Origin: an uncultured Alphaproteobacteria bacterium
Lineage (GTDB): Bacteria > Pseudomonadota > Alphaproteobacteria > JAPOUT01 > G958296285
DNA: 64,000 nucleotides
NCBI GenBank assembly: GCA_958296285.1
Contig: OY282459.1
Coordinates: 258,367 to 322,366, forward strand
Direction: 5' to 3'
The translations under genes and the position numbers were made by a program. Positions 1,658-62,439 of this stretch are shown here, piece by piece. The notes under the pieces are model-generated. The model was given only the letters and a program-made list of their open reading frames with translations, was not told the DNA's origin and did not search any database. Positions within the stretch are counted from its first letter, which is position 1. The number at the start of each line of letters is the position of its first letter.

Positions 1658-2593
1658 ATGCCTTCCCCATCCGATCCTAAAACCCGGCCGCGGCGAGGCG
1701 GTCTCTTCGCTCGGACGCGCCGATTTTTCGGGAGACGGAAGCGCTCGCCGCGCGAGACGCTGGCGCGGTGGCTCGCCAAGAATTCTCATTTTGACGCCGA
1801 TGAGCGGCGCATTTTGAAAAACGTCCTCTCCCTCGCCGCCCGCCGCGTGGAGGATGTGATGGTCCCCCGCGCCGATATTGTCGCGCTGGAGGAAAAGACG
1901 CCGAAAGAGCGGGCGCTCGCGGCGTTTCTGAAGGCGGGGCATTCGCGTCTGCCTGTCTATCGCAAGAGGCTGGACGAGCCTTTGGGCATCGTCCATGTGA
2001 AAGATTTGCTGGGCGAGGAAAACGGGGTCAAGCGGCCAGGATCGGGGACAACCCTTCAAGAAGATCATCGTTCTGACAATCGGGAAGTTTCGCTTTTGCG
2101 GCGCGTCATGCGTCCTCCGCTTTTCGTTCCGCCCTCCATGGCGGTGCTGACTCTTCTTCGGAAGATGCAGGCGGCGCGGCTTCATCTGGCCCTCGTCATT
2201 GACGAGCATGGCGGCACATGCGGGCTGGTCTCCATTGAGGATTTGGTGGAGGAGATTGTCGGCGAGATTGAGGACGAGCATGATTCGGGAGAGGCGCTCA
2301 CTTTGAAGCGCCGCGCCGGCGGCGTCATAGAGGCGGATGCGCGCTTTCGGATTGACGAGCTGGAGCGAAGGCTGGATTTGTCGCTCCGCGCCGGCAGCGC
2401 GGACGAAGATGTCAGCACGCTGGGCGGGCTTCTCTTCACCCATGCCGGACGGCTTCCGAAAAAAGGGGACATTGTGCGCCATCCGTCTGGCTGGCGGCTG
2501 GAGGTTCAGGACGCCGATCCGCGCCGCGTCAAGCGGGTGCGTCTTCATCCGTCTCGGGGCAGGGCTGAGCGGGATTCGCGCCCAAAGCCCTAG
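1658..2593 (+). CDS. corC: CBS-pair / CorC_HlyC transporter-associated protein (CorC/TlyC family)
   Basis: DUF21-less CorC-type architecture. Two CBS-like blocks (EDVMVPRADIVALEE..., LALVIDEHGGTCGLVSIEDLVEEIVGEIEDEHD) and a C-terminal CorC_HlyC-like tail. Arg-rich N-terminal extension. Confidence 0.8.
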   Translation: MPSPSDPKTRPRRGGLFARTRRFFGRRKRSPRETLARWLAKNSHFDADERRILKNVLSLAARRVEDVMVPRADIVALEEKTPKERALAAFLKAGHSRLPVYRKRLDEPLGIVHVKDLLGEENGVKRPGSGTTLQEDHRSDNREVSLLRRVMRPPLFVPPSMAVLTLLRKMQAARLHLALVIDEHGGTCGLVSIEDLVEEIVGEIEDEHDSGEALTLKRRAGGVIEADARFRIDELERRLDLSLRAGSADEDVSTLGGLLFTHAGRLPKKGDIVRHPSGWRLEVQDADPRRVKRVRLHPSRGRAERDSRPKP

Positions 2594-2620
2594 AGGGGAA
2601 AACGTCTCCTCGTCGGCAAA

Positions 2621-3412
2621 ATGACGGATTGGCCCAAAGAAGGATTCCTCACAAGAGGCAGCGCCGGACGCCGCCTCGCTTGGCGGCGAAGCGCGCCCCC
2701 TCAAGCCGACAAGCCCTCGCTCTTATGGCTGGGCGGCTTCGCCTCCGATATGCAGGGGACGAAAGCCTCGCATCTCGCCCAATGGGCGGAGCAAACGGGA
2801 CAGAGCCTCATCCGCTTTGACTACGGATCCCATGGCGAATCGCCGGGCGATTTCGCCTCCGCCACCCTCGGCGATTGGCGGGACGACATGATGGCCGTCT
2901 TGGACAAGCTCGCCTCAGGACCTCAGATTCTCATCGGCTCCAGCATGGGCGCGTGGCTTGCCCTCCTCGCCGCCCGCGCCAAGCCCGATAAAGTAAAAGC
3001 GCTCTTGCTGATCGCGCCGGCGCCGGACTTCACCGAAAGACTGATCCTGCCCTCTTTGTCAGAGAGCCAAAAAATCGCGCTCCAACAAAAAAGCGCGATC
3101 CATCTCCCTGACGCGCCGGAACCCCTCTCATGGCGCTTCGTCCAAGAGGCGCGCGCCCATTGTCTCCTTGATCAGACGATCCCTCTCTCATGCCCCGTCC
3201 ATATCCTTCACGGCGCGAAAGACCAGACCGTGCCGCTCTCCCATCTCCTCCTGCTCCTCTCCCGATTGGACGCGCCGGACATTCTTTGCCGAATCCTGCG
3301 AGAAGGCGATCACCGCCTCTCCTCGCCGGAGGCGCTCAAGATTTTGCGCGAGACGGCGTCGGCGCTCTCGGACTCTCTCTCCTCCGCCAGCGCCCGCAAG
3401 CCCTCCCGATAG
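2621..3412 (+). CDS. alpha/beta-fold hydrolase
   Basis: Nucleophile elbow GSSMGAWLA. Typical alpha/beta hydrolase length and layout. 3' end overlaps the convergent SDR gene by ~100 nt. Confidence 0.65.
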   Translation: MTDWPKEGFLTRGSAGRRLAWRRSAPPQADKPSLLWLGGFASDMQGTKASHLAQWAEQTGQSLIRFDYGSHGESPGDFASATLGDWRDDMMAVLDKLASGPQILIGSSMGAWLALLAARAKPDKVKALLLIAPAPDFTERLILPSLSESQKIALQQKSAIHLPDAPEPLSWRFVQEARAHCLLDQTIPLSCPVHILHGAKDQTVPLSHLLLLLSRLDAPDILCRILREGDHRLSSPEALKILRETASALSDSLSSASARKPSR

Positions 3413-4305
3413 GTCGGGTAGAGAAGGCGCAGTTTCAACTCTCCGTGAAGACGGCGATTGCGAACGCGCCGATTCTCCCGATAAAAGCGCCGCGCCGCCT
3501 CCGAAATCTCGCCCTGCCGCAGCGTCTCCAACGGGCGAAGGGGCGGCGAAGGGAGACCCAAAAGCCTCGCCCCATAGCGCAGCACTTCGCTGGCAGGGGC
3601 CGGACAGTCGTCGCAGAGATTGTAAATGCGACAGCGCTCTTTGGATGGCGAGAGCGCGGAGGCTTCCAAAGCGCGGGCGATGTCGTCCCGATGAATCCGC
3701 GAGAAAAACTGCCCCGCTTTGTAAATGCGAAGGACGCCCCGCCCGCGCCCGCGCCGCCGCCGCAGCCTTTCCAAAACGCTCCGCCCAGGACCATAAATCC
3801 CGCCAAGACGGAAAATATGAAGAGACGCGCCATCATCCCGAAAAAGCCCGCGCCATGAAGCTTCGGCGCAGGCGCGTCTTTTCGCCGGATCGCTCATCGG
3901 GCGGAGCGCCGAACTTTCCGACACCGCCGCCCCATGCCGATCGCCATAGACGCCGGTCGTGGAAAGATAGCCCGCCCACAAAAGAGCGCCGCCGGCGCGA
4001 GCATCAATGATCTCCCCGCCGTGATGGCGAAGGAGAGGATCGCCTTTATCGTCAGGCGGAATGGAGGAAAGAAGATGGCTTATCTTTCCGCCGCGCAAAA
4101 GTTTGGACAGATTCGGGGAGGGCGCTTTTCCGGTGAAGAGAATGGGGGCGATTCCCAATCGCGCCAAGCGCTCTTTCTTCTCTTGGTCGCGGGCGCTGCC
4201 ATAGACTGTCCAGCCTTGTTGGATCATGCGCCGCGCGAAGGCGCGGGCGCTGTAGCCGGCGCCGCAGCAGAGAAGAACGCTCACGGCTCTGACGCGCCGT
4301 TCCAT
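3310..4305 (-). CDS. NAD-dependent epimerase/dehydratase (extended SDR) family protein
   Basis: N-terminal Rossmann-like segment (VSVLLCCGAGYSARAF...GWTVYGSARD). The true start may be an internal Met (MIQQGW). Confidence 0.55.
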   Translation of the reverse strand: MERRVRAVSVLLCCGAGYSARAFARRMIQQGWTVYGSARDQEKKERLARLGIAPILFTGKAPSPNLSKLLRGGKISHLLSSIPPDDKGDPLLRHHGGEIIDARAGGALLWAGYLSTTGVYGDRHGAAVSESSALRPMSDPAKRRACAEASWRGLFRDDGASLHIFRLGGIYGPGRSVLERLRRRRGRGRGVLRIYKAGQFFSRIHRDDIARALEASALSPSKERCRIYNLCDDCPAPASEVLRYGARLLGLPSPPLRPLETLRQGEISEAARRFYRENRRVRNRRLHGELKLRLLYPTYREGLRALAEERESESADAVSRKILSASGEERR

Positions 4306-8723: not shown

Positions 8724-10028
8724 TCACGAAAAGAGTCGGACAGTGAACCAATAAGCGCCCAGCCCCCCTAAAGCGACAGCGACGCCATCTTCGGCGGGGG
8801 CGCGCCAAGCGCCGGCGCGGCTCAGTTTAAACAGCCCCCAGATCGCCAGCGAGAATAAAAGGATCAGCGCGACTTGTCCAATTTCCACCCCCAGATTGAA
8901 GCCGAAAAGCGCCGGCAGGCGGCGCTCAATCGGCAGCCCGAATTCTTGCAGCGCCGAGGCGAAGCCGAAGCCGTGAATGAGTCCGAAAAAAGAGGCGAGC
9001 GCCGAAATCTCAAAAGCGCGATGTTTCGAACCTTCGCGCCGAAGCCCATAAAAGAGCGTGAAGAGAATCAGCCCGCCGAAAAAAGCGAAACTCCCCAAAG
9101 ACGGCAGAAACCAAGAAAGACAGGCGAGCGCTGTCAGAAGAAGGGACAGAAAAGCGAAAAGATACGGAGATTTTTGGCGGCGCTCCATGCTTTCGGCGGC
9201 GGCGAAGAGAATCGTGAAGCCGATCAGCGCCTCTATCAGAGGAATCTTGGCGAGGAGGAGATCGGTCGCGGCAAGCCCCAAAGTGAGGCTGTGTCCCAAT
9301 GTGAAGCCGGTGACGGCGAGGAGCGCCAGGCGCGTCCGGCGGCACAGAAGAAGAAGGGCTAGAAGAAAAGCCAAATGATCCAAGCCCTCCAAAATATGCG
9401 TGATGCCGATCGGAATATAGGTCAGAAAAGCCTCCCAAAAAGACAGGGACTTTCTTTGCGCGGCTTTCTCGTCAAAGGAGACGGTCAGGCTTCGGCGGCT
9501 GTTCGTCAATATCGCCTCGCGCGCGCCAGCAGCCCCTTCAAAATGGAGACGCAGAAAGTGAAGATGAGTCGGAATCTCGTCAAAAAGAATATCGCCCTTG
9601 AGGGCCAGAGGAGGGCTCTCGGCAAAGGGCTTCGGACATTGAAATCGCATGGAAAGGCGAAAGAGATCGCCCCCGCCGCCGCCCCCGCCGAAACCGCCGC
9701 CGCGCCCCGCGCCGGACTCCCATCGGGGCGGCGCGGCCAGAGAGCAGCGCGCCCCCTCCTGCCAAAGACGGAACATGGAAGAAAATCTTTTTAGAAGAAA
9801 ATCTTCGGGGAGGGCGGCCGACCTCTCCGCTAGAACGGGAAACGCCCTCGCAATCTCCATGATCGGCATGGCGATCCGCGCCTCCGCCGCGCCATCTTTA
9901 TGGACAAGCCAGTGGGATGAAGAGCGGCTTAAACTATGGGCTAGCGCGCTTCCATCGGCGAAGAGGGCGAGGGCAAGCAAAGCGGCGGCGAGGACGGGGG
10001 CGGGGGCGAAAATCCCTGTCAGACGCAT
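8724..10028 (-). CDS. HupE/UreJ-family membrane protein with N-terminal periplasmic extension
   Basis: Signal peptide, ~220-aa periplasmic part, then multi-TM domain with HupE/UreJ-like HxxxGxDH (HILEGLDHLAFLL) and HGFGFA motifs. Contains a poly-Gly tract (GGGFGGGGGGGD). Confidence 0.6.
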   Translation of the reverse strand: MRLTGIFAPAPVLAAALLALALFADGSALAHSLSRSSSHWLVHKDGAAEARIAMPIMEIARAFPVLAERSAALPEDFLLKRFSSMFRLWQEGARCSLAAPPRWESGAGRGGGFGGGGGGGDLFRLSMRFQCPKPFAESPPLALKGDILFDEIPTHLHFLRLHFEGAAGAREAILTNSRRSLTVSFDEKAAQRKSLSFWEAFLTYIPIGITHILEGLDHLAFLLALLLLCRRTRLALLAVTGFTLGHSLTLGLAATDLLLAKIPLIEALIGFTILFAAAESMERRQKSPYLFAFLSLLLTALACLSWFLPSLGSFAFFGGLILFTLFYGLRREGSKHRAFEISALASFFGLIHGFGFASALQEFGLPIERRLPALFGFNLGVEIGQVALILLFSLAIWGLFKLSRAGAWRAPAEDGVAVALGGLGAYWFTVRLFS

Positions 10029-10030
10029 CC

Positions 10031-10978
10031 CTATCGCCCTTCATCATCCAGATGAATCTCTATCCGAGCCTCCTCGCGCAGGCGATCCAAATAGGCGCGG
10101 AGCGCCTTGTCGTCTTGCGCCGTCCGCCAGCGCCGCCAGACCTCCTCCCGCGCCTCGTCAAAGGACGGAATCCGCGCCTCCTCCCGCGCGATCAGACGCA
10201 GGAAAATCCTGCCGCCATCCGCCGAAGGGTAAGGGCCGCCCAGTTCCGAAACCTTCAAGCGCTCCGCCGCCGCCGCCAAAGCGCCGCCCAAATAATGCCG
10301 CAGCGCCGAGAGAGGAAGAGGCGCGTCAGGAAGAGGAATGACGTCATCCCTCACGCCTGACCTCGCGTCAAGACGCCCCGCGTCAAGACGCCCCGCCGCC
10401 CCCGCGTCAAGACGCCTCGCCGCCTGCGCCCGCTCCAAATCCGCCAAAGACCAATCTTTCCCAGCCCCCTCCTTCCAATCTTCCGCCGAAAGGCGAAAGC
10501 GCCGAAGATGAAGTCTCGCCTCGCGGCGAAAAAGACCGCGATTCTCTTGATAAAAATCGCGCAACCCCTCTTCGGACAAATCCTCGCGGGAAGCCTCGCG
10601 CAGAATGAGCGCGATCATGCTGCGGACGATCGCCGCGCGAACCGCTCGGTCGGCGCGAAAGAGACCCAAACTCCGCGCGCGCTGCAGCAGCAGCTCCTCG
10701 TCCAAAAATCTCTCCAACAGACGCCGCTTCTCGCTCTTTGAGAGCCGGGTTCGTCTCGCCGCTTCTATCCCCTTGAGCGCCGCCTCATAGTCGGCGCGCG
10801 CGATCGCTCTGCCATTCACATGGGCGGCGGCGGAGGGGTTTTTGAGACGCGCCGCCAAACCCGCCGACCCGTCCAAACTTTGCCAAAAGGCGATGACGAT
10901 CCCGGCGAGAGCCGCCGCGCCGAAAAAGCCGGCGCGCCAAGCCTCGCTCTTTCGCAAAAGCCGCGGCAAAGACAGCAT
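10031..10978 (-). CDS. SurA N-terminal-domain-like periplasmic chaperone (hypothetical)
   Basis: N-terminal TM anchor then SurA_N/PpiD-like helical region. Contains the in-frame 15-bp tandem repeat (GRLDA units, DNA 10365-10430). 3-nt spacing to the HupE gene. Confidence 0.4.
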   Translation of the reverse strand: MLSLPRLLRKSEAWRAGFFGAAALAGIVIAFWQSLDGSAGLAARLKNPSAAAHVNGRAIARADYEAALKGIEAARRTRLSKSEKRRLLERFLDEELLLQRARSLGLFRADRAVRAAIVRSMIALILREASREDLSEEGLRDFYQENRGLFRREARLHLRRFRLSAEDWKEGAGKDWSLADLERAQAARRLDAGAAGRLDAGRLDARSGVRDDVIPLPDAPLPLSALRHYLGGALAAAAERLKVSELGGPYPSADGGRIFLRLIAREEARIPSFDEAREEVWRRWRTAQDDKALRAYLDRLREEARIEIHLDDEGR

Positions 10979-16719: not shown

Positions 16720-17035
16720 CTCCCGTGAAGGGGGGTGTGGGGGGCGAAGCCCCCCGCGAAAAGGGGGTTCGGGGGAAACCCCCGAATAGTCGGCGGGCGT
16801 GGCGAAACGAAGCGCACGAAGCGCGTAGCGCAAGTGCGCGAGAAAGCCCGCCGACCCCCCTGCTTACAAGAGCTCTTGGCGTTCAGGGGGCGCGTGGGTG
16901 GGTCGCATTTGCTCGCTCACGCTTCGCTCCGCTCGCAAATGCTTTTTTCCCACCCACCCACGCGTTTCGGGGGGATTCCCCCCGACCCCCCCCTTCTTCG
17001 CGGGGGGCGTTCCGCCCCCCACACCCCCCTTCACT
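16720..17035. repeat. palindromic G6/C6-run repeat element, copy 1 (forward orientation)
   Basis: Left arm GTGAAGGGGGGTGTGGGGGGCGAAGCCCCCC..GGGGGAAACCCCC. Core TAGTCGGCGGGCGTGGCGAAACGAAGC...GAGCTCTTG...GCGCGTGGGTGGGTCGCATTTGC...GCAAATGCTTTTTTCCCACCCACCCACGCG. Right arm is the inverted complement of the left. Intergenic. Confidence 0.85.
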
Positions 17036-17051
17036 GGAGCGCCGCCCCCCT

Positions 17052-18734: not shown

Positions 18735-19607
18735 TTATCTTTTGGCGAAGAGGAGACGTGTCAGGAAGGGGAGTTGGAGGATCCAGAGGAGGCGGGTTGT
18801 GTCGGCGGGTTTGCAGGGCGGGAGTCCGAGCGTCAGCGTTTTTTGGGGTTTGTCGGTGTAGGTTCGGAAGATTCTGTCCCAGAGGGAGAGGATGAAGCCG
18901 AAATTTGTGTCGCGCTCGCCTTGGCGGATGGAGTGGTGCGTGCGGTGCATATCGGGCGTGACGAGGATGGCGCGGATGTATTTTTCGTAAGGCTTTTTGA
19001 TGGAGGCGTTGGCGTGGTTGAAGATCGCCATGCTGGAGAGCAGGATTTCAAAGATCATGACGCCGTAGGCGGCGGCGCCCAGCGCGTAGACGGCTGTGAT
19101 TTTGATTCCCATGCTGAGGAGGATTTCTATTGGGTGGAATCGCAGCGCGCTGGATGCGTCTATATCGGGGTCTGTGTGGTGGGCGGCGTGGATTCGCCAG
19201 AGCGCGGGGATTTTATGGAGGAGGGCGTGTTGGGCGTAGATGAGGAGGTCTAGGGCGAGGATTGTGATGAGGATGGAGAGGGCGTGGGGGAGTTTGGTTT
19301 GGTTGAGGAGTCCGATGGTGTTTTGTTGGGCGTGGATGGCGGTTTCTAGGGCGAGGATTGGGACGAGGAGTCGGAGGAGGATCATGTTGCAGAAGCCGAG
19401 TCCGAGGTTGACGGCGAGGCGTTTTTTGAGATTGAGGATGAGGGCTCTTGCTGGGGCGTGGTGTTCCCAGAGCATGATGATTGCGAGGGTTATGATGAAG
19501 ATGGCGCTTCGGATGATGGGTTCATATTCGGTCATGGGGCATTTTATATTTGTGAAAGCTCCAAAAGAAAGGGGGGTTTGGGGGGCTAGCCCCCCAAAAA
19601 AAACCAA
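18735..19607 (-). CDS. sterol desaturase / fatty-acid hydroxylase superfamily membrane protein
   Basis: His boxes HAAHHTD and HRTHHS with multiple TM helices. 290 aa. Confidence 0.8.
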   Translation of the reverse strand: MVFFGGLAPQTPLSFGAFTNIKCPMTEYEPIIRSAIFIITLAIIMLWEHHAPARALILNLKKRLAVNLGLGFCNMILLRLLVPILALETAIHAQQNTIGLLNQTKLPHALSILITILALDLLIYAQHALLHKIPALWRIHAAHHTDPDIDASSALRFHPIEILLSMGIKITAVYALGAAAYGVMIFEILLSSMAIFNHANASIKKPYEKYIRAILVTPDMHRTHHSIRQGERDTNFGFILSLWDRIFRTYTDKPQKTLTLGLPPCKPADTTRLLWILQLPFLTRLLFAKR

Positions 19608-19885
19608 GCGGGCGAAGCCCGCTATAGTCGGCGGGCGTGGCGAAACGAAGCGGGCGAAGCCGCAGGCAAGCCCGCGAGAAAGCCCGCCGACCCCCCTGCT
19701 TACAAGAGCTCTTGCGAGCAGGGGCGGTTGGGGGGTGGGTCGCTTTTCCTCGCTGCGCTACGCCACGAGTGGCTACGCTTGCTCGGAAAAGCTTTTTTCC
19801 CACCCCACCCCCCAACCGTTTCGGGGGGGATTCCCCCCGATCCCCCCTTCTTTCTTGGGGGGCAAGCCCCCCCAAACCCCCCTTA
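19566..19885. repeat. palindromic G6/C6-run repeat element, copy 2 (forward)
   Basis: Same family as copy 1, with the ACCAAGCGGGCGAAGCCCGCT module variant at the left. Intergenic between the desaturase and pyrD. Confidence 0.85.
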
Positions 19886-19923
19886 ACGAAAGCAGCCTAA
19901 TCTGCTAACCCTCCCAAGATAAA

Positions 19924-21150: not shown

Positions 21151-22179
21151 ATGTCGTTTCAGAGATTGATGCTCAAATCCTTATTGAGTCTGCCTGATCC
21201 TCTTCTCATTCGGATGTCGGGCGGTCGGCCTCTTGAGATTGACGGACGGCGTTTGGATGCGAAAGCGCAGTTTCTCGCGGCGCAGGCGGCGAACGCGCCG
21301 GCTCTGCACAGTCTCACCCCTCTTGAGGCGCGTCAGGCGACAAGCCTCGCCTTCGCGCTTCTGAACGCGCCGCGCCCAAGCGGCGTGGAGACGCGGGACG
21401 ATAAGATTCCGGGGCCCGGCGGCGATCTTCCTGTCCGCCATTATCGTCCGAAGGGCGCGTCTGGCGCTCTTCCCGCCCTTGTTTATTTTCATATGGGCGG
21501 ATGGGTGATTGGCGATTTGGACAGTTCGGATTCTTTCTGCGCGCTTTTGGCGAAGCGCGGCGGGGCGCATGTGATGTCGGTGGATTATCGTCTCGCGCCC
21601 GAGCATAAATTTCCTGCCGCGATGGAAGATGGAATCGCCGCCTATAAATGGATCGCGCGGAACGCCGCTTCTCTGAAGGTTGACGGCGATCGCGTGGCGG
21701 TTGGCGGCGATTCGGCGGGCGGCGGCATCAGCGCGGTCATTTGTCATGAGGCGAAGAGTCGCGGATATCGGCAGCCCAAGGCGCAGATGTTGATTTATCC
21801 TGCTGTGGATTTGGCGGCTGTCGGCGGCTCTATGGAGAGTTGCAGAGATTGTTATCCTCTGACGAGGGATTTGATGCTTTGGTTTGGCGGGCATTTTTTA
21901 GAGCGGGAGGAGAGTCGCGTGGATGTGATGGCGTCGCCGTTGCGCCGCGAGGATTTTAGCGAGTTGGCGCCGGCGCTTCTCATCACGGCGGGGTTTGATG
22001 TTTTGCGTTCGCAGGGTGAGGCTTATGCGGAGAAGATGCGGGAGGCGGGTGTTTCGGTTCGGTATCGTTGTTATGATTCTCTTGTTCATGGTTTCACGGC
22101 GCAGGCGGGGGTAGTGTCTGCGGCTGAGGCGGCGTGTGAAGGGATTGCGCGGGATTTTGGGAAGATTCTTTCTGAGTAG
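21151..22179 (+). CDS. alpha/beta hydrolase (esterase/lipase, HSL-like)
   Basis: HGGG-type oxyanion motif (HMGGWVIGD) and nucleophile elbow GDSAGGG. Confidence 0.8.
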   Translation: MSFQRLMLKSLLSLPDPLLIRMSGGRPLEIDGRRLDAKAQFLAAQAANAPALHSLTPLEARQATSLAFALLNAPRPSGVETRDDKIPGPGGDLPVRHYRPKGASGALPALVYFHMGGWVIGDLDSSDSFCALLAKRGGAHVMSVDYRLAPEHKFPAAMEDGIAAYKWIARNAASLKVDGDRVAVGGDSAGGGISAVICHEAKSRGYRQPKAQMLIYPAVDLAAVGGSMESCRDCYPLTRDLMLWFGGHFLEREESRVDVMASPLRREDFSELAPALLITAGFDVLRSQGEAYAEKMREAGVSVRYRCYDSLVHGFTAQAGVVSAAEAACEGIARDFGKILSE

Positions 22180-22189
22180 GAGTTTTGCG

Positions 22190-22595
22190 GAAAAGGGGGG
22201 GCGGCGAGCCGCCGCGGGCATCTTTTTCATAGACAGGCATTTTGGATTTGCCCCAGGGGAACTAGTGCATAGAAGCTGAAGGTGAAGGGGGGTCAAGGGG
22301 GGCTTGCCCCCCTTGAGAAAAGGAGGCTCGGGGGAAACCCCCGAATAGTCGGCGGGCGTGGCGAAACGAAGCGAGCGCTAGCGAGCGAGAAAGCCCGCCG
22401 ACCCCCCTGCATCGCGTGAGCTCTTGCGAGCGGGGGGCGCGTGGGTGGGTCGCATTTGCTCGCTCACGCTTCGCTCCGCTCGCAAATGCTTTTTTCCCAC
22501 CCACCCACGCGTTTCGGGGGGGATTCCCCCCCGACCCCCCCCCCTTCTTCGCGGGGGGCTTCGCCCCCCACACCCCCCGTCAGGGAGCTCCCCTG
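22190..22595. repeat. palindromic repeat element, copy 3 (forward; extended variant with ~90-bp 5' module)
   Basis: Core as copy 1. The extra left module GGCGGCGAGCCGCCGCGGGCATCTTTTTCATAGACAGGCATTTTGGATTTGCCCCAGGGGAACTAGTGCATAGAAGCTGAAGG is also present (inverted) at the right end of copy 7. Confidence 0.85.
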
Positions 22596-22622
22596 TTTTT
22601 TGGAGATCCTCTATAATAAACC

Positions 22623-23369
22623 ATGACCCTCGCCCAAATCTTCCAAACAGCCCGAGACTGGATCCTCCCCCCTCATTGCCTCATCTGCGACACAACCATC
22701 CTCACCAACGGATGCCTCTGCGCGCCATGCTGGAAATCTATCCGCTTCATTGACAAACCCCGATGCCCCATCACAGGCGTCCCCTTCGCCCACCCCTGGC
22801 CCGCCCATATGCAAAGCGCCCAAAGCCGCCTCGTCAAACCGCCCTACGATTACGCCCGCGCCGCCATGCTCTACGGATCCGAAAAAAGCCGAATCCTCAT
22901 CGCCCAAATGAAATTCCGCGACCACCCCGAAATCGCCATCCCCGCCGCCCAATGGATCGCGCGCGCCAGCCGCGACATCCTCAACAAAGCCGACCTGCTC
23001 GCCCCCGTCCCCCTCCACCGCCGCCGACTCTTCCAAAGACGCTTCAACCAATCCGCCGAAATCGCCCGCGCTCTTTCCCAAATCAGCCAAATCCCGCATC
23101 TCCCCGACCTCCTGATCCGCGCCCGCCACACCCAGCAGCAGACGGGGCTGAAGCGCCGCGATAGAGAACGCAATGTCGCGCGCGCTTTCATTATCAATCC
23201 CCATCACAAGAAGCGCGTCAAAGGGCGGAGCGTTCTTATCATTGACGATGTGATGACGTCGGGCGCGACAAGCGGCGAATGCGCTCAGACTTTGCGCCGC
23301 GCCGGCGCGGGCGCGATTGGGGTTTTGACTGTGGCGCGGGTTGTTCATCCCCATGAGACGCATCCTTGA
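22623..23369 (+). CDS. comF: ComF-family phosphoribosyltransferase-domain protein
   Basis: N-terminal double Cys pairs (CLICDT...CAPCW). C-terminal PRTase motif VLIIDDVMTSGAT. Confidence 0.8.
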   Translation: MTLAQIFQTARDWILPPHCLICDTTILTNGCLCAPCWKSIRFIDKPRCPITGVPFAHPWPAHMQSAQSRLVKPPYDYARAAMLYGSEKSRILIAQMKFRDHPEIAIPAAQWIARASRDILNKADLLAPVPLHRRRLFQRRFNQSAEIARALSQISQIPHLPDLLIRARHTQQQTGLKRRDRERNVARAFIINPHHKKRVKGRSVLIIDDVMTSGATSGECAQTLRRAGAGAIGVLTVARVVHPHETHP

Positions 23370-23370
23370 G

Positions 23371-23705
23371 CGCATAGAAGCTGAAGGTTAAGGGGGGTTT
23401 GGGGGGCTAGCCCCCCAAAAAAAAACCAAGCGGGCGCAAGCCCGCTATAGTCGGCGGGCGTGGCGAAACGAAGCGGGCGAAGCCGCAGGCAAGCCCGCGA
23501 GAAAGCCCGCCGACCCCCCTTGCAACGCGAGAGCTCTTGGCGTTCAGGGGGCGCGTGGGTGGGTCGCATTTGCTCGTTTCGCGTTGCTTCACTCGCAAAT
23601 GCTTTTTTCCCACCCACCCACGCGCTTTCGGGGGGATTCCCCCCGACCCCCCCCTTTTCTCAAGGGGGGCAAGCCCCCCTTGACCCCCCGTCAGGGAGCT
23701 CCCCT
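23371..23705. repeat. palindromic repeat element, copy 4 (forward)
   Basis: Same family. Starts with GCATAGAAGCTGAAGGTTAAGGGGGG as copy 3. Confidence 0.85.
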
Positions 23706-24485
23706 GTCTTTTGGAGCTTCAAAAAGCCCCTTCCGCGCCGCCATCATATAATTCACATCCATATCCCCAGTCAGACGAAAAAAAGAAAAAAAAGGCACAT
23801 ACATAACACCCGTCTCATCACTCGCCTCCAACCCCCCGCCACGAAAAGCGCGGCGAAGCTCGTCAGGCGTGATGAAACCCTCATAACGATGCGTGCCGCG
23901 AGGAAGCCAGCCCAAAACATACTCCAAGCCAAGAATCGCGAAAAGAAAAGATTTCGGCGTCCTGTTAATCGTCGCCGCGATAAGAAGCCCCGAAGGCGAA
24001 AGCATCGCGCCAAGACGCTTGACCGTCCCCGCCACGTCCGGAAGATGCTCCAAAATCTCCATGATCAAAATCACGTCATAAGAACGCGCCGCCGACCCCT
24101 TCCCCTTCGCCGCCCTCTCCCGATAAAGCGTCTCGTCCGTGCCGACTCGGTAATCTATCTTTAAGCCCTGAGAAACAGCATGGGCTTTGGCGATCTCTAT
24201 CGTCTCTGAACTCGCGTCCAAAGCGGTGACCCTAGCGCCCATCCGCGCCAACGGCTCGCTCAAAAGACCGCCGCCGCAGCCCATATCCAAAAAACGAAGC
24301 GAAGCGAAAGACTGCCCGCGCCCTCCCAAGCCAAAATGCGCCGCGACAAGCCTCTCAATATAAGAAAGGCGAAGCGGATTAAGCCGATGGAGCATCGCGA
24401 AAGGCCCCTCCCTGTCCCACCATCTCTGGGCAAGAGCGGAGAAATGCGCGATCTCTTCTTCTTCTCTGGCGGTCGGCGGATTCAT
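23691..24485 (-). CDS. ubiG: bifunctional 3-demethylubiquinol 3-O-methyltransferase / 2-polyprenyl-6-hydroxyphenol methylase
   Basis: Class I SAM-MTase motif LDMGCGGGLLSEPLARMGARVTALDAS and UbiG-like flanking sequence. The start is most likely MNPPTA (24485). Divergent from lysC as in many alphaproteobacteria. Confidence 0.8.
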   Translation of the reverse strand: MNPPTAREEEEIAHFSALAQRWWDREGPFAMLHRLNPLRLSYIERLVAAHFGLGGRGQSFASLRFLDMGCGGGLLSEPLARMGARVTALDASSETIEIAKAHAVSQGLKIDYRVGTDETLYRERAAKGKGSAARSYDVILIMEILEHLPDVAGTVKRLGAMLSPSGLLIAATINRTPKSFLFAILGLEYVLGWLPRGTHRYEGFITPDELRRAFRGGGLEASDETGVMYVPFFSFFRLTGDMDVNYMMAARKGLFEAPKDRGAP

Positions 24486-24568
24486 GATTCTTGAACCAAG
24501 TCTATCGCGCCGCGCCCCCTTTGAGAAGAGCTCTGCGCCGCCGCCCGTCTGATGATACACTCCGCGCC

Positions 24569-29307: not shown

Positions 29308-30381
29308 ATGGTGTCGGCGGAGGCGCGGGCGCGTTTGTTGGCGCGCTTCGCGGATTTGGAGACGCGGCTGGGCGCGAGCGATCCTGCCGGCGCGGATTAT
29401 GCGAGATTGTCCAAAGATTGGGCGGCGCTTCGCGCCGCCGCCGATCTGGCGCGGCGGATTGACGCGCTGGCGCGGGAGTTTGAGGCGCTGGAGGCGATGC
29501 GGCGCGAGGCGGCGGGCGACAGGGAGATGATCGCTTTGGCGGAGGAGGAGGCGCGCGCCATTCTCGCGCGGCGCGAGGCTTTGGAGGCGGAGTTGGCGCG
29601 GGCGATGGCGGCGGGCGGCGCGGCGGGCGATGGGGGCGATGAGGATGATGCGATAGGCTCTGTGATTTTGGAGATTCGCGCCGGGACGGGCGGCGAGGAG
29701 GCGGCGCTTTTCGCTGGGGATTTGATGCGGATGTATCAGCGTTATGCGGCGTCTCGGGGTTGGCTTGTGGAGATTCTCAATCTTTCGGAGTCGGAGACGG
29801 GGGGGGCGCGCGAGGCGATTTTGTCCATTGGCGGGGCTGAGGTTTTTCGGCGTTTGCGGTTTGAATCGGGCGTTCATCGGGTTCAGCGCGTGCCGGTGAC
29901 GGAATCGGGCGGGAGGATTCACACTTCGGCGGCGACTGTCGCTGTTTTGCCGCAGCCTGAGGAGCGCGAGGTAGAGATTGTGGAGAAGGATCTTCGGATA
30001 GATGTTTTTCGGGCGCGGGGTCCGGGCGGGCAGTCTGTGAATACGACGGACAGCGCGGTTCGGATCACGCATATTCCGAGCGGCATTGTTGTGGCGCAGC
30101 AGGATGAGAAGTCGCAGCATCGCAATAAGGCGAAGGCGTTGCGCGTTTTGCGGGCGCGGCTTTATGAGCGCGAGCGGGAGGCGGCGCGGGTTGCGCGCGA
30201 TGAGGCTCGGCGCGGGCAGATTGGCACTGGTGATCGTTCGGAGCGGATTCGGACGTATAATTTTCCACAGAACAGGGTTAGCGATCATCGGATTCGTTTG
30301 ACGGTTCGGAAGTTGGATATGGTTTTGGATGGGGCTTTGGATTTGGTTGTGGGGCCGTTGCTGGAGTCGCGGACGGATTGA
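29308..30381 (+). CDS. prfA: peptide chain release factor 1
   Basis: GGQ motif ([23 protein letters not shown]) and RF-1 tripeptide region. The upstream Met at 29149 overlaps ispG and is unlikely. Confidence 0.9.
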
Positions 30382-30384
30382 CAT

Positions 30385-30695
30385 GCTCCCGTGAAGGGGG
30401 GTTTGGGGGGCTAGCCCCCCAAGAAAGGGGGGGTCGGGGGGAATCCCCCCCGAAAGCGCGTGGGTGGGGTGGGGGAAAAGCATTTGCGAAGCGAGAGTAG
30501 CGAGCGAGCAAATGCGACCCCACCCACGCGCCCCCTGCTAGAAGAGCTCTTGCGATGCAGGGGGGTCGGCGGGCTTTCTCGCGGGCTTGCCTGCGGCTTC
30601 GCCCGCTTCGTTTCGCCACGCCCGCCGACTTTTCGGGGGTTTCCCCCGAACCCCCTTTTTTCAAGGGGGGCAAGCCCCCCTTGACCCCCCTTTAT
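30385..30695. repeat. palindromic repeat element, copy 5 (reverse orientation)
   Basis: Same family in inverted orientation (GCGTGGGTGGG... precedes ...GCTTCGTTTCGCCACGCCCGCCGACT). Intergenic prfA/prmC. Confidence 0.85.
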
Positions 30696-30724
30696 CGGAG
30701 CCAAGAAACCGATACACTGCCCAA

Positions 30725-32300: not shown

Positions 32301-34907
32301 ATGATGAGGCAGGACAATTACACCGAAAAAACGCTGGACGCGCTCCGCGCCGCCGAAACGCTGGCGCAAGAGAGAGGCCATGCCGAAATCGCCCCTCTTC
32401 ATCTCGCCGCCGCTCTCCTCTCGGAAAAGAGCGGCTTGGCGGCGAGGCTTCTCTCCGCCGCCGGCGCGTCTCCCGCCGCGCTGAAAGAAGCCATAGAGAC
32501 GGCGCTGGCGAATCTGCCGCGCCAAAAAGGCTCCGCCGCCCAAAGCCATGCCACCCCGGCGCTCTCGGCGCTTCTCAAGGAGGCGCGCGCCATCGCCGAA
32601 GCGCAAGGCGATTCGCATCTGGCGCTGGACACGCTCCTCGTTGCGCTCGCGCGCCACGCGCCGCCGCCGCTTTCAGAGATTTTCCGCGAAGCGGGGCTGA
32701 GCGATCGCGAGATCCAAGAGGCTTGCCAAAATCTTCGCATGGGGCGCGCCAGTCAAAGCGCCTCGGCGGAGGAAACTTATGAGGCGCTCCAAAAATACGC
32801 CCGCGATCTGACCGAAGAGGCGAGGAAAGGAAAACTAGACCCCGTCATCGGGCGCGATGAGGAAATCCGCCGCGCCATGCAGGTCTTGTCGCGCCGAACG
32901 AAAAACAATCCCGTCCTGATCGGCGCGCCCGGAGTCGGCAAGACCGCCATCGCCGAAGGCTTGGCGCTCCGCATCGTCCGACAGGATGTGCCGCGAAGTC
33001 TGGCGCGGAAGCGAATCTTGGCGCTGGATATGGGCGCGCTTGTGGCAGGCGCGAAATATCACGGCGAGTTTGAGGAGCGTCTGAAGGCGGTCTTGGGCGA
33101 GATTGTCGCGGCGGGGGATGTCGTGCTTTTTATAGACGAGATGCATATGCTGATCGGCGCCGGGCGCGCCGGCGGCGCGATGGACGCCTCCAACCTTCTC
33201 AAGCCGGAACTGGCGCGCGGCGCGCTCCGCTGCATCGGCGCCACCACGCTGGACGAATATCGCGAGCATGTGGAGAAGGATGCTGCGCTCGCCAGACGCT
33301 TCCAGCCCGTCTATGTCCAAGAGCCGAGCCGCGAGGACGCCGTCTCCATTCTCCGCGGCTTGAAGGAGAAATATGAGACTCATCATGGCGTCCGCATCGC
33401 CGATGGCGCGCTCATCGCCGCGGCGGAACTGTCCGAGCGCTATATTCACGATCGCTTCCTTCCTGACAAGGCGATTGATCTGATGGACGAGGCGGCGAGC
33501 CGCGTTCGGATGCAGATGGATTCGCGCCCCGAAGCGCTGGACGAGATGGAGCGCCGTCTGGTTCAGCTGAAGATAGAGCGCGAAGCGCTCGCCCGCGAGA
33601 AGGACGCCGCATCCCAATCGCGTCTTCGGGCGCTTGAGAAAGAGATCGCCGCGCTGGAAGACGCCGCCGCAAAGCGCCGCGCTTTATGGGACGCCAGCCA
33701 AGAGAGAAGCCAAAAAGCGCGAGAAACCCGCGCCCGTTTGGAAGAGGCGCAGACGGCGTTGGAGCGCGCCACGAGGGACGGCGATTTTGAGCGCGCCGGA
33801 GAAATCGCCCATAAGATCATTCCTGATTTGGAGAGAAGGCTCTCCGCGCCGCCGGCGGCGGATGCGGCTGATGCGGCGGATGCGGCTGATGACAGAGAGT
33901 TGGAGATTGTCCGCGCCGAGGATATTGCCTCTGTCCTTGCCCGATGGACGGGAATCCCGGTGGAGACGATGCTGGAGGGCGAGCGCGAGAAACTTTTGCG
34001 CTTGGAGGAGACTCTCGCCCAATGGGTTGTCGGGCAGAAGGAGGCGATTGGCGCGATTGCGCGCGCCGTTCGCCGACAGAGGGGCGGGCTTCAGGATCCG
34101 GATCGTCCGATTGGCGCGTTTCTTTTGATGGGGCCGACTGGCGTTGGCAAGACGGAACTTGCCAAATCTTTGGCGCGCGCGCTTTTTCAAGATTCTCGCG
34201 CCCTGTTGCGGATGGACATGTCGGAATATATGGAAAAGCATGCGGTCGCGCGGTTGATTGGCGCGCCGCCGGGCTATGTGGGTTATGAGGAGGGGGGCGC
34301 TTTGACGGAATCTGTTCGCCGCAGACCTTATCAGGTCATTCTTTTGGATGAGATTGAGAAGGCGCATCCTGATCTTTTCAACCTTCTTTTGCAGCTTTTG
34401 GATGAGGGGCGCTTGACGGATGGTCATGGGCGTTTGGTGGATTTCAAGAATTGTTTGATTTTGATGACGTCCAATTTGGGGGCGGATCATTTGGCGCGGG
34501 CGGAGGCGCCTGACAGGGAGCGTTTGATGGGGGAGTTGCGCGGATTTTTTCGCCCTGAATTTTTGAATCGCTTGGATGAGGTTCTGATGTTTGACAGGCT
34601 TTCGCGCGAGGAGGTGGATGCGATTGTTGGGCTTCAGATTGGGCGGTTGAATGAGAGGCTTGCGGCGCGGGGTCTTCGTTTGCGGTTGGAGGATGGGGCT
34701 CGCCGTTGGATTGGGGATAGGGGTTATGATCCTGTTTATGGGGCGAGGCCTTTGAAGCGGGTGATTCGCGGTGAGATTGAGGATGGTCTTTCGGAGGAGA
34801 TTTTGAGGGGGTTGTTGGTTTCGGGGGATGAGGTTGTGGTTTCTGTGAAGGGGGATGGTCTTGTTTTGAGGAGGGAGGCGGGGGGTCGCGGCGAGGAGGC
34901 GGCTTGA
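32301..34907 (+). CDS. clpB: ATP-dependent chaperone ClpB
   Basis: Clp N domain. Two AAA+ modules ([13 protein letters not shown].., [15 protein letters not shown]). Long middle coiled coil. 868 aa. Contains an (AAD)n insertion. Confidence 0.95.
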
Positions 34908-35215
34908 AAAAAGGGGGGTGTGGGGGGCGAAGCCCCCCACGAAGAAGGGGGGGATCGGGGGGGAATCCCCCCCGAAAACGCGTGGGTGGGTGGGAAAAGA
35001 GCTTTTCCGAGCAAGCGCAGCGCAGCGAGGAAAAGCGACCCACCCACGCGCCCCCTGAACGCCAAGAGCTCTCGTAGCAGGGGGGTCGGCGGGCTTTCTC
35101 GCAGGCTCGCGCTACGCGCTTCGCCTGCTTCGTTTCGCCACGCCCGCCGACTTTTCGGGGGTTTCCCCCGAACCCCCTTTTCTTGGGGGAACTTCGTTCC
35201 CCCAAACCCCCTTTT
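34907..35215. repeat. palindromic repeat element, copy 6 (reverse)
   Basis: Same family. Intergenic clpB/M23 peptidase. Confidence 0.85.
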
Positions 35216-36730
35216 TTAACGCAGCCGCGCCGCAACCGCCCCCCGAGACAAAGGCAATCCCTCAAACCGAGCCGTAATCTCACGCCGAGACGCCCGAAAC
35301 AACGCCATCTCATCATCAGACAAAACCTCACGCGGCAATGCCACCCGAAGCGGATCCCGACGCCGACTATATTTCAAAATCTCATAATGCAAATGCGCCC
35401 CCGTAGAACGCCCCGTAGAACCCACAAACCCAATCGTCTCGCCCTGACGAACAAACCGCCCCTTCCCTATGCCCGCGCGAAACTTCCACAAATGCGCGTA
35501 AGCCGTCTGATATCCCCCCCTATGCCGAATGCGAATGTAATTGCCATAAGCGCCCAAACGACCCGCATCCTCCACAACCCCATCGCCCGCCGCATAAACA
35601 GGCGTCCCGCGAGGCGCGGCGAAATCTATGCCGCGATGCATCCGCGAATAACCCAAAATCGGATGCCGCCGCATCCCAAAATGCGAGGAAATCCGCGCCC
35701 CATCCAAAGGCGTCTTCATCAAAAGACCAATCACAGGACGACCATCGCGATCATAAAACGCGCCCCTCTCGCCGTCAGACGGATAACGCCAAATCTCATG
35801 CGCCTTCGCGCCGCGCCGCAGCCTCAGCCGCGCGTAAAGAAGACGACCCCCCGCGCCATAAGCAATCAAATCGCCCTCCTTGTCATAATGAAGCGCGTAA
35901 AGAGCGTCAAAAGAATCGCCGCGCCGCAACTCATGCTGAAACGCCACAATATGACTGAACACGCGAACAATCTTCTGAATCATCCCCGCCGGCACGCCCG
36001 CCCGCTTCGCGGATGTGAAAAAATCCGACTCTATCAAAACGCGAACCCGAAACAATCGCGTCTGAAGAGGCAGATTCTCCTTCTCCGAAATGTAAAAACG
36101 ATCGCTGGCGCGCTTCAGCGCGATCGCCGTGTCCGGACTCGGACGCAGCCGCATCGCCAAAAGAGTCCGCTTCGGAACGCCGCCCTCGGCGGCAGGCGCG
36201 AAGGCGAAATCCATAAACAATTTCTGCCCGGCGCGCACAAGATTCGGATCCAAATGTTTTCCCAAAGCCCGAAGAGCGCTCTCTATCTGCCTCGGGCGAA
36301 CATGGTTGCGCGCCAAAAGAGTCCAAAGAGTCTCCCCTTCCCGAAGCGCCAGCGCGCGCCTCTGCACAGTGCCGGGCGCGCGCAAGAAAGGCGCGCGCGG
36401 CGCGCGCACCAATTTTTTTCTCAGAACCTCTTTCAAATCGGCGCGGCGAGAAAAAGCGTCCGCCCGCGCCGCTTTCATCCTAACCCCAATGTCTCGCGCC
36501 TGAGCCTGCGCCCTCTCCTCAAGAATGCGCTCATCGGCGCGGCGCGGCGCGTCTCGCGCCGAGAGAATGAGCGGCGCGAAAAGCGCGGCAAAGGCAAGAT
36601 AGGCGAATCGCGCCCAAAACATCTCTCGCCAAAGATGACGCGCTTTTTCAAGCTTTATGCCCACCTTTTTCCTCCAAAGCGGAAGCGGAATTTGTCGCGG
36701 CGACAACGCCGGAAAGAGAAATTTTAGCAA
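35216..36730 (-). CDS. M23-family metallopeptidase (LytM-type)
   Basis: HRGIDFAAPRGTPVYAAGDGVV ... GSTGRSTGAHLHYE (HxxxD and HxH M23 motifs). N-terminal TM/signal. Confidence 0.8.
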   Translation of the reverse strand: MLKFLFPALSPRQIPLPLWRKKVGIKLEKARHLWREMFWARFAYLAFAALFAPLILSARDAPRRADERILEERAQAQARDIGVRMKAARADAFSRRADLKEVLRKKLVRAPRAPFLRAPGTVQRRALALREGETLWTLLARNHVRPRQIESALRALGKHLDPNLVRAGQKLFMDFAFAPAAEGGVPKRTLLAMRLRPSPDTAIALKRASDRFYISEKENLPLQTRLFRVRVLIESDFFTSAKRAGVPAGMIQKIVRVFSHIVAFQHELRRGDSFDALYALHYDKEGDLIAYGAGGRLLYARLRLRRGAKAHEIWRYPSDGERGAFYDRDGRPVIGLLMKTPLDGARISSHFGMRRHPILGYSRMHRGIDFAAPRGTPVYAAGDGVVEDAGRLGAYGNYIRIRHRGGYQTAYAHLWKFRAGIGKGRFVRQGETIGFVGSTGRSTGAHLHYEILKYSRRRDPLRVALPREVLSDDEMALFRASRREITARFEGLPLSRGAVAARLR

Positions 36731-41194: not shown

Positions 41195-41337
41195 GGTGTT
41201 TAGGATTTTATCATGGATTTATGTTTAGGCGGGTTTGGGTTCTTTTGGTTTTGGTAGTCGTGATGGGGGTTATTCTTGTCGCGGGTTTTGTTGTTGTGGT
41301 TGTGGAGATTGTGTCGCGGGCTTGGGCGCTGTGGAGT

Positions 41338-41730
41338 TAAGAAAGGGGGGTGTGGGGGGCGAAGCCCCCCGCGAAGAAGGGGGGATCGGGGGGAATCCCC
41401 CCCGAAAGCGCGTGGGTGGGGTGGGGAAAAAGCATTTGCGAGTGAAGCAACGCGAAACGAGCAAATGCGACCCACCCACGCGCCCCCTGCTAGAAGAGCT
41501 CTTGTAAGCAGGGGGGTCGGCGGGCTTTCTCGCAGGCTCGCGCTACGCGCTTCGCCTGCTTCGTTTCGCCACGCCCGCCGACCGCAGCGGGCTTCGCCCG
41601 CTTGGTTTTTTTGGGGGGCTAGCCCCCCAAACCCCCCTTCACCTTCAGCTTCTATGCCCTAGTTCCCCTGCGGCAAATCCAAAATGCCTATCCATGCAAA
41701 AAATGCCCGCGGCGGCTCGCCGCCGCGCTC
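41338..41730. repeat. palindromic repeat element, copy 7 (reverse; extended variant with the ~90-bp module at its right end)
   Basis: Core 41338-41648, then the inverted GGCATTTTGGATTTGCC...GCCGCCGCG module to ~41730. Immediately upstream of tRNA-Glu. Confidence 0.85.
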
Positions 41731-48857: not shown

Positions 48858-48912
48858 TTTTTATTTTTGATTTTTGATTTTTGTTTTTTGGGCGCGGATT
48901 TTATTTTTTATT

Positions 48913-51693: not shown

Positions 51694-51760
51694 CTCAGTT
51701 GGTTAGAGCAGCGGAATCATAATCCGCGTGTCGGGGGTTCGAGTCCCTCCTCCGCTACCA
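51684..51760 (+). tRNA. tRNA-Met (anticodon CAU; elongator Met or tRNA-Ile2(k2C) not distinguishable by eye)
   Basis: GGCGGAGTAGCTCAGTTGGTTAGAGCAGCGGAATCATAATCCGCGTGTCGGGGGTTCGAGTCCCTCCTCCGCTACCA. Anticodon loop ATCATAA. CCA encoded. Confidence 0.85.
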
Positions 51761-51778
51761 GAACGCAATGGAGGCAGC

Positions 51779-55400: not shown

Positions 55401-55431
55401 TTGTCCTGCTGTCCAAAATTGTAAAGTTGCG

Positions 55432-58203: not shown

Positions 58204-58213
58204 GGGGGGATTA

Positions 58214-58552: not shown

Positions 58553-58559
58553 GAGCAAC

Positions 58560-62048: not shown

Positions 62049-62127
62049 GGCGGGTCTCTTGGGGTTTGCGGCTTTTGGGATGGGGGGATTTTGGGGGAAT
62101 GGGGGTTAGGAGTCAAGACGCGCTCCA

Positions 62128-62432: not shown

Positions 62433-62439
62433 GGAGCCG

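Follow-up and report, generated by a model that had tools for sequence, protein, structure and literature searches.

In bacterial chromosomes, the leading strand of replication carries more G than C and more T than A, and in vertebrate mitochondrial DNA a gradient of strand asymmetry is proportional to the time spent single-stranded. Background on the replication-associated GC and TA skew is given in PMC3269012 and PMC7717575. A more local asymmetry was reported at human meiotic break hotspots (PRDM9; Hinch et al. 2023, PMC7615360), where C>N and A>N changes occur on the forward strand to the left of the break and are mirrored to its right over 1–2 kb, and was attributed to resected single-stranded DNA (ssDNA). 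Inverted repeats able to form hairpins are reported to cause breakage in yeast, along with mutation of the adjacent DNA (PMC3681665). Here, a related pattern is described in a 64,000-nucleotide stretch (the window) of the genome of an uncultured Alphaproteobacteria bacterium (GenBank assembly GCA_958296285.1, contig OY282459.1, positions 258,367 to 322,366, forward strand), which contains nine copies of a repeat of ~335 bp. The gene comF lies within the mutational shadows of two copies of this hairpin-rich repeat, which resembles a miniature inverted-repeat transposable element (MITE), and the compositional gradient leaks into the amino-acid sequence of the ComF protein.

The likeness to the eukaryotic break hotspots is close. 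When break-hotspot asymmetry is defined after PMC7615360, the flanks of the repeat show the same mirror image, in that the strand with its 3′ end toward the repeat is the one depleted of C and A (the C>N and A>N changes of the hotspots), on a scale of about 1–2 kb. However, the hotspot data are de novo mutation spectra, whereas the footprint described here is a near-saturated, fixed compositional one on a bacterial chromosome; it surrounds dispersed repeats, shifts protein composition, and may come from breakage. The replication-associated skew shares the G+T versus C+A signature, and the change of sign across the repeat resembles that at a terminus, but the skew here spans ~1 kb instead of megabases, is several-fold stronger, and switches at repeats rather than at the origin or terminus. 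The pattern does not fit the skew switches of a replication origin and terminus, of which a replicon would have one each, with skew spanning whole replichores: the 64 kb hold nine terminus-type switches, each fading within ~1.1 kb. The mitochondrial gradient is likewise a graded G+T versus C+A skew, attributed to deamination of C and A on the exposed strand; it is a single replication-linked gradient per genome, in contrast to the repeat-anchored, bidirectional gradients of the window.

Palindromes that are broken in bacteria offer a further comparison. In Escherichia coli, SbcCD cleaves long palindromes and the break is repaired by RecBCD and RecA, as described in PMC6061781, PMC8386832 and PMC4752480. 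The two cases would have in common a hairpin-former of a few hundred base pairs, a two-ended break, repair from the sister chromosome and processing of several kilobases on both sides. The E. coli palindrome is engineered, whereas the repeat of the window is a natural multi-copy family of nested imperfect hairpins. In the literature searched, no report of a compositional or mutational footprint at SbcCD-cleaved palindromes was found. As for natural families, the repeat resembles MITEs, REP/BIME, Correia/NEMIS, ERIC and the Rickettsia palindromic elements in being small, non-coding, multi-copy and intergenic, with terminal inverted repeats, stacked hairpins and terminator-like ends. To our knowledge, none of these families carries a kilobase-scale flank skew. 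The repeat also differs from them in matching no Rfam family and nothing in any collection searched (for REP elements, see PMC3733652). No description of a repeat-anchored, bidirectional, kilobase-scale skew in a bacterial genome was found in searches of open-access full text, an absence which is not proof. As far as can be told, what is new is the carrier, namely a palindromic repeat dispersed in a bacterial genome, together with a near-saturated footprint at equilibrium and a recoding of proteins large enough to measure; the mutational logic is already known from the eukaryotic break hotspots.

Skew around the repeats and within comF

The repeat copies were delimited by alignment and with an nhmmer profile, which gave exactly nine in the window, split five to four between the two orientations. 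They were named c1–c9. On the + strand lie c1 (16722–17050), c2 (19560–19905), c3 (22264–22595), c4 (23370–23705) and c9 (62126–62450), and on the − strand c5 (30380–30710), c6 (34900–35232), c7 (41333–41655) and c8 (58240–58565). Apart from alignment and profile, c1, c2 and c5–c9 are supported by the skew of their flanks, and c5, which is inserted between prfA and prmC, also by comparison with orthologues; c3 is found by the profile with E=4e-112, and c4 is 80% identical to c3 over the core.

Bias is expressed here as skew, (G+T−C−A)/n on the + strand. In 9/9 copies, and in both repeat orientations, the left flank is G+T-rich and the right flank C+A-rich. Over 600 nt, the left flanks range from +0.17 to +0.56 and the right flanks from −0.25 to −0.44, compared with a mean of −0.04 (standard deviation 0.08) in background 600-nt windows. 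Within 200 nt of the repeat, the aggregate skew is +0.35 on the left side and −0.38 on the right, and it falls to about ±0.1 by 1–1.2 kb; isolated flanks mostly extend about 1.0–1.3 kb, with a decay of roughly 1.1 kb. The Pfam-verified genes that flank c1 to c9 have the strand pairs (−,−), (−,+), (+,+), (+,−), (+,+), (+,−), (−,+), (−,−) and (−,−), respectively. The sign of the skew is the same at every orientation of the flanking genes, and therefore gene orientation, and hence sense transcription, does not set it. A first-pass annotation, made from the letters of the stretch alone, had proposed that the skew is positioned relative to the repeats and not to the gene; this is borne out at all nine copies and across all gene-strand combinations, as well as by five repeat-free orthologous loci in which the third-position skew along comF is flat.

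Read 5′→3′ toward the repeat, the 500-nt flanks consist of A 0.147, C 0.171, G 0.392 and T 0.291, versus A 0.192, C 0.308, G 0.308 and T 0.192 in far regions, a net flow on the repeat-facing strand that is mainly C→T, with C→G and A→G in addition; the GC content of the flanks is 5 points lower. Changes polarised on the consensus of the orthologues are mirrored on the two sides of the repeat. Synonymous third positions show the effect most strongly, and it fades with distance from one gene into the next. At their outer limits, the shadows fade gradually; a search there for an abrupt end or a motif resembling Chi brought out no evident shared motif, and the dinucleotide context of the flanks shows a weak depletion of TC and CT, which is confounded by coding constraints. 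The repeat-facing strand of the 500-nt flanks also carries 13.7 runs of at least four G per kb, versus 4.1 elsewhere, and 0.47 runs of at least four C per kb; these G-run-rich flanks are potential formers of G-quadruplexes or R-loops.

The gene comF (22623–23369, +) is an intact open reading frame (ORF) of 248 amino acids with a double zinc ribbon and a phosphoribosyltransferase domain. Its membership of the ComF family is supported by Pfam matches to DZR_2 (1.4e-12, N-terminal) and Pribosyltran (5.8e-07, C-terminal, with the phosphoribosyl pyrophosphate-binding loop) and by five syntenic orthologues, which are its closest homologues at 51–54% identity, no exact match to the protein being on record. 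Alignment with these orthologues shows no variation in the zinc-ribbon cysteines or in the DDVMTSGAT motif, and the catalytic and zinc-binding motifs are all intact. As the first-pass annotation had placed it, comF is the sole gene between c3, the conserved sequence of which ends at 22595, and c4, which starts at 23370/23371, directly after the comF TGA (23367–23369).

According to the same annotation, the composition flips in the middle of the gene, the first ~530 bp being C+A-rich and the sequence from ~23150 G+T-rich. The C+A-rich part is clear, with C236, A117, G94 and T80 in 22623–23149 (third codon positions C117/G19 and A30/T9). In 23150–23369, the counts are G71, T45, C60 and A44 (third positions, from 23151, G22/C24 and T21/A6), i.e., this 3′ part is only weakly G+T-rich overall (skew about +0.05) and clearly so only in its last ~150 nt. 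The switch is nevertheless real: the maximum-likelihood change point, which falls at 23133 for third positions and at 23223 for all positions, was matched by 0/5000 codon shuffles (permutation, p≤2e-4). It does not, however, lie in the middle but ~2/3 to 4/5 along the gene, about 540–630 nt from c3 and 150–240 nt from c4.

Which part of comF has changed was assessed with codon alignments of the window genes against the five syntenic orthologous loci (L001–L005), in which the nhmmer profile finds zero repeat copies. Sites at which at least four orthologues agree served as a proxy for the ancestral state, and substitutions in the window were polarised on that consensus. In six successive 150-nt bins, the third-position skew of the window comF is −0.78, −0.68, −0.76, −0.72, −0.08 and +0.38, whereas that of the orthologues is flat (+0.07, +0.31, +0.20, +0.22, +0.14 and +0.30). 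The same intragenic switch in genomes lacking the repeats had been named as the observation that would speak against an effect of the repeats, and none of the five loci shows it. The gradient is absent from the repeat-free orthologues, and the skew is therefore derived and arose in place.

The shadow to the right of c3 rewrote the first ~510 bp of comF (22623–23132, +), as seen from third positions, polarised changes, paired tests and the change point. In this segment, the third positions are C 0.69, G 0.08, A 0.18 and T 0.05, compared with C 0.29, G 0.39, A 0.09 and T 0.23 in the orthologues, and the polarised third-position changes comprise 32 G>C, 19 T>C and 8 G>A (59 in total) versus 2 in the reverse direction. 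From the third-position C:G ratio of about 8.6:1, a two-state estimate would place the directional rate near the repeat several-fold above background, if the sites are at equilibrium. Relative to the orthologues, codon positions 1+2 have moved by −0.34 per codon (p=1.7e-4), and the encoded residues follow, with P/T/Q/H/K/N at 28% versus 21% in the orthologues and G/V/W/F/C/L at 23% versus 32%. The recoding toward P/T/Q/H/K-type residues that had been read from the sequence of the 5′ part is thus confirmed.

The 3′ segment of comF (23133–23369, +), which is mildly G+T-rich, behaves like the orthologues. Over the last ~240 bp, third positions show no difference from them (+0.03, p=0.87), nor do positions 1+2 differ significantly; the two agree in their amino-acid classes, and the polarised changes show no excess of A→G or C→T, with 5 toward G+T versus 8 away. 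The G/V-rich C-terminus of ComF, LRRAGAGAIGVLTVARVVH, aligns with LRRAGAGQINVATLARVVH in the orthologues; this tail is the ancestral, conserved ComF C-terminus. The check proposed in the first-pass annotation, which expected G>A and T>C changes in the 5′ half and A>G and C>T changes in the 3′ half, thus gives the expected excess in the 5′ half only, and the proposed recoding of the 3′ part toward G and V has to be given up. By this comparison, only the 5′ ~510 bp of comF are derived, and the gene carries one strong shadow, that on the right side of c3, which stops or is offset close to c4, rather than two opposite recodings.

Accordingly, comF is a valid and striking illustration of a one-sided effect and not the two-sided demonstration that had been suggested; the surroundings of c5 give a cleaner, two-sided example. 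There, the third-position skew of prfA is +0.5 to +1.0 toward the repeat and that of prmC is −0.96 just after it, compared with +0.0 to +0.4 in the orthologues, in which prfA and prmC overlap by 4 nt and the skew is flat. At 540–750 nt from the repeat, prmC still has a third-position skew of −0.56 to −0.64, versus +0.2 to +0.4 in the orthologues, and its codon positions 1+2 are shifted by −0.60 per codon (p=1e-12), a stronger recoding than in comF.

A hairpin-rich repeat family

The copies of the repeat are non-coding and all intergenic, often at gene ends, and share 78–93% pairwise identity; ORFs within them have no Pfam matches. Their ends are terminal inverted repeats pairing as G6-N3-4-G6...C6-N3-4-C6, and their interior holds five or six hairpins in which the G-rich arm is always 5′ of the C-rich arm. 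Folded as ssDNA and compared with shuffles, c3 reaches −102 kcal/mol (z=−6.9) and c4 −99.7 kcal/mol (z=−5.9), and the consensus structure comprises 95 pairs, with compensatory double changes at 11 of them when the nine copies are compared. The repeat matches itself on the opposite strand with E down to 6e-44, carries the palindrome AAGAGCTCTT at its centre, and has terminator-like hairpins with T-runs near its left end (− strand) and at its right end (+ strand). Being short, non-coding, present in nine copies and bounded by terminal inverted repeats, it has the basic features of a MITE. When the copy junctions were aligned by eye, no consistent direct duplication of the kind left at a target site was seen, and the inverted-repeat boundary GCTCC...GGAGC is fuzzy.

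The terminal hairpin modules are mosaics of about 3–4 variants across the nine copies, a pattern that suggests gene conversion between copies. Two such modules form a 44-nt inverted repeat, found by an inverted-repeat search, with its left arm (22283–22326) in the left terminal module of c3 and its right arm (23650–23693) in the right terminal module of c4; the arms are 95% complementary and 1323 nt apart, and they enclose c3, comF and c4 in the manner of a composite element of 1.4 kb. Beyond the common left end, c3 (22230–22263) and c7 (~41650–41700) share an extra ~35–55 nt, CATAGACAGGCATTTTGGATTTGCC.CAGGGGAACTAG, and the ~19 nt that follow, GCATAGAAGCTGAAGG, are common to c3, c4 and c7 only. 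These additions suggest either sub-families or flanking DNA that travelled with the repeat.

The order comF, ubiG (−), ask, ptsP, ispG, prfA, prmC is identical in the window and in L001–L005, and c3 and c4 therefore occupy intergenic junctions of a conserved gene string. Some gene ends have been remodelled by the repeats, namely that of ubiG at c4 and those of prfA and prmC at c5. The ubiG gene is convergent with comF and its stop codon (23691–23693) falls within c4; the prfA stop lies at the edge of c5 (30381), and the long prmC ORF begins within c5 (30587–30710), with homology to PrmC only from around codon 65–71.

Outside the window, the repeat was not found by exact-seed or BLAST searches of 185,579 species-representative genomes, JGI metagenome contigs, IMG/VR and PLSDB, and Rfam gave no match to it at gathering score, the window containing three tRNAs only. 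In the genomes, a 25-mer core had no match and an 18-mer core had 26 single matches across unrelated phyla, which nhmmer showed to be of seed length only. Two core motifs had 0 matches in the JGI contigs, IMG/VR gave 3 isolated single-copy matches to the 18-mer core, and a distant search of the PLSDB plasmids gave no match to the repeat.

Proposed breakage at the repeats and rival explanations

The geometry of the skew implies that the responsible process starts at the repeat and treats the two strands differently according to their 5′→3′ direction away from it. The best explanation, to which we would give even chances, is that the repeat is a site of recurrent DNA breakage followed by outward 5′→3′ resection and damage to the exposed strand, and that the flip in comF would be the shadow of c3 offset by that of c4. 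The break could be triggered by a structure-specific nuclease such as SbcCD acting on extruded hairpins or a cruciform, by transposase-mediated excision with restoration from the sister chromosome, or by a site-specific endonuclease at the central AAGAGCTCTT palindrome. Outward resection would remove one strand per side and leave its 3′-ended complement single-stranded, i.e., the + strand to the left of the repeat and the − strand to the right. Exposed cytosines and adenines would then be damaged (C→U, A→hypoxanthine, abasic sites), and the damage would be fixed upon refilling of the resected strand. The ability of the repeat to form a cruciform or multiple hairpins, as judged from the fold z-scores and the 95 consensus pairs, was counted in favour of breakage, and the mosaic copy ends fit repair templated from other copies. 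A more general statement, that dispersed palindromic repeats act as recurrent break or nick sites, each accompanied by kilobase-scale, strand-asymmetric hypermutation that recodes ComF, PrmC and PrfA, is advanced tentatively and with slightly less assurance.

Several observations weigh against breakage and resection. The window contains no obvious nuclease or transposase candidate gene. The largest third-position class in the 5′ segment of comF is a G↔C transversion (the 32 G>C changes), unlike classic spontaneous deamination; this excess could reflect abasic-site bypass, or a force favouring G and C at third positions on top of transitions. Canonical RecBCD/AddAB degrades both strands up to Chi, so that ssDNA would not start at the break, and RecJ-type resection or convergent repair forks must therefore be invoked. 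Amino-acid divergence is not clearly accelerated in flank genes relative to distant genes (relative distance ratios 0.95–1.29); together with the intact ComF motifs, this means that purifying selection contains most of the mutational pressure. Finally, cancellation by c4 and a short reach of the c3 shadow look alike in comF itself, and an equal-strength additive model of c3 and c4 overshoots there and fits worse than c3 alone (root-mean-square error 0.33 versus 0.17), and it was rejected.

The last point bears on why the comF flip is off-centre. In the c1–c2 and c2–c3 intervals (2.4–2.5 kb), the opposing gradients meet near the midpoint, whereas in the c3–c4 interval (775 bp) the flip lies 627 nt from c3 and 148 nt from c4. 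A plain end of the c3 shadow, with c4 adding nothing to its own left flank, would also produce a flip, and the orthologue-like 3′ 240 bp without net gain of G+T, as well as the better fit of a c3-only profile than of the equal-strength model, speak for it. We nevertheless regard it as less likely than cancellation, given that the left shadow of c3 reaches ~1.1 kb and that other right flanks are still strongly skewed at 540–750 nt, as in prmC. Moreover, a c3-only profile derived from the other eight right flanks gives −0.31 and −0.24 for the final two 90-nt bins of comF, which in fact score −0.13 and +0.11 and thus exceed it by +0.18 and +0.35. The copy c4 is the weakest on both sides, its right flank (−0.25 over 600 nt, range ~700 nt) being the weakest and shortest right shadow. 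In the preferred account, the c3 shadow is probably cancelled over the last ~200 nt of comF by the opposite, roughly two-fold weaker shadow that c4 would cast, and c4 is most simply read as a copy of lesser age or activity, with a strength roughly estimated at half that of c3.

The main rival to breakage is nick-initiated strand replacement, in which a nickase (e.g., of the HUH, RAYT or IS200 type) would cut each strand at the repeat hairpins, followed by outward 5′→3′ nick translation or strand displacement, either by a biased error-prone polymerase or leaving the complement as a damaged template. The geometry would be the same as for resection, with a process moving 5′→3′ outward on each strand; the self-match of the repeat on the opposite strand means that both strands present the same hairpins, and the objection from RecBCD and Chi is avoided. 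Nicking is still unlikely in our estimation: no nickase gene lies within the window, no REP/RAYT or IS200 system with a flank skew was found in the literature searched, and a tract of ~1.1 kb is long for nick translation by Pol I.

A replication-type asymmetry, in which forks stalled at the hairpins or PriA-dependent repair forks converge on the repeat and make it a miniature terminus toward which the G+T composition of the leading strand points, is less probable again. A replication terminus would show the same sign (+ to −) and the same signature (G>C, T>A), and repair of palindrome-induced breaks in E. coli uses convergent repair synthesis (PMC4752480 and PMC8386832). Ordinary forks, however, pass one way; only forks set up by breaks could give a gradient that is symmetric over 1 kb on both sides, so that the model becomes a sub-case of the break model. 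In addition, the third-position C:G ratio of about 8.6:1 in comF is far above the mild skew of the orthologues (0.0–0.24 per 500-nt window in L001).

Exposure of the non-template strand to deamination by transcription into or out of the repeats, including through R-loops, was considered because the repeats have terminator-like hairpins on both strands and because the G-run-rich repeat-facing strand (13.7 versus 4.1 per kb) would favour R-loops for inward transcripts. This is very improbable: the sign of the skew depends on the side of the repeat and not on the orientation of the flanking genes, and comF, which is transcribed away from c3, has a C+A-rich coding strand, the opposite of what non-template deamination would give. 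Promoters firing outward would give a skew of the opposite sign, there is no reason for inward transcription to have its greatest effect at the edge of the repeat, and no sigma-70-like promoter was found in the region. Transcription-associated asymmetry was thus rejected. Insertion of the repeat at pre-existing skew switches, or selection shaping the flanks, would fit the intergenic position of all copies, often at gene ends, but is the least credible of all and was rejected on the orthologue comparison, in which the repeat-free sites have no switch (comF flat, prfA and prmC overlapping and flat), as well as disfavoured by the strength of the effect at synonymous third positions, where it is greatest, and by its fading with distance from one gene into the next.

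If recurrent breakage and resection at the repeats is the true cause, the window would hold a prokaryotic counterpart of meiotic-hotspot mutagenesis or kataegis, with synonymous sites pushed close to fixation of a single base, and a natural record, at equilibrium level, of the strand that is exposed during break or nick processing in bacteria. Mobile palindromic repeats would then not only interrupt or regulate genes but impose a local directional mutation pressure within about 1 kb, a new source of intragenomic variation in bacterial mutation rate and spectrum and a new confounder for GC-skew origin finding, codon-usage and dN/dS analyses. The comF gene shows how far the amino-acid composition of a conserved protein can shift while its motifs are kept.

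Neighbouring features

To the left of c3 lies an alpha/beta hydrolase gene (21151–22179, +; Pfam Abhydrolase_3), in which the skew climbs to +0.3 to +0.5 near c3. The UbiG-like methyltransferase gene to the right of c4 (23691–24560, −; identified by Pfam) is C+A-rich on the + strand, with a third-position skew of −0.76 to −0.24, compared with about −0.1 in the orthologues. Just beyond c3, a perfect TATAAT (22612–22617) lies 5 nt upstream of the comF ATG, and a similar TATAAT is found ~6 nt before the ATG of msrA, after the same end of c8 (around 58190–58240, − strand); these pairs may be leaderless starts next to the repeat. A simple sigma-70 scan found no full sigma-70-like promoter in the region.

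Near secA, L001 (4921–6336) and L002 (1083–5329) contain fusions of an N6/N4 DNA methyltransferase with an HNH nuclease, encoded by one to several genes in tandem, and these genes are not at the corresponding place in the window. Directly after tRNA-Met (51684–51760), the window contains a low-GC island (~51700–55450, 43–52% versus ~61%), which encodes a 744-amino-acid AIPR (abortive-infection) protein and a PEMT/ICMT-like methyltransferase and is probably a horizontally acquired defence islet. Weaker skew excursions occur at ~2000–3500, ~9000–10500 and ~48500–49000 with no repeat copy nearby, for example a GC skew going from +0.14 to −0.21 across ~2500–3500 and an AT skew of −0.40 at 48501–49000; these could be gene-level effects or traces of lost copies.

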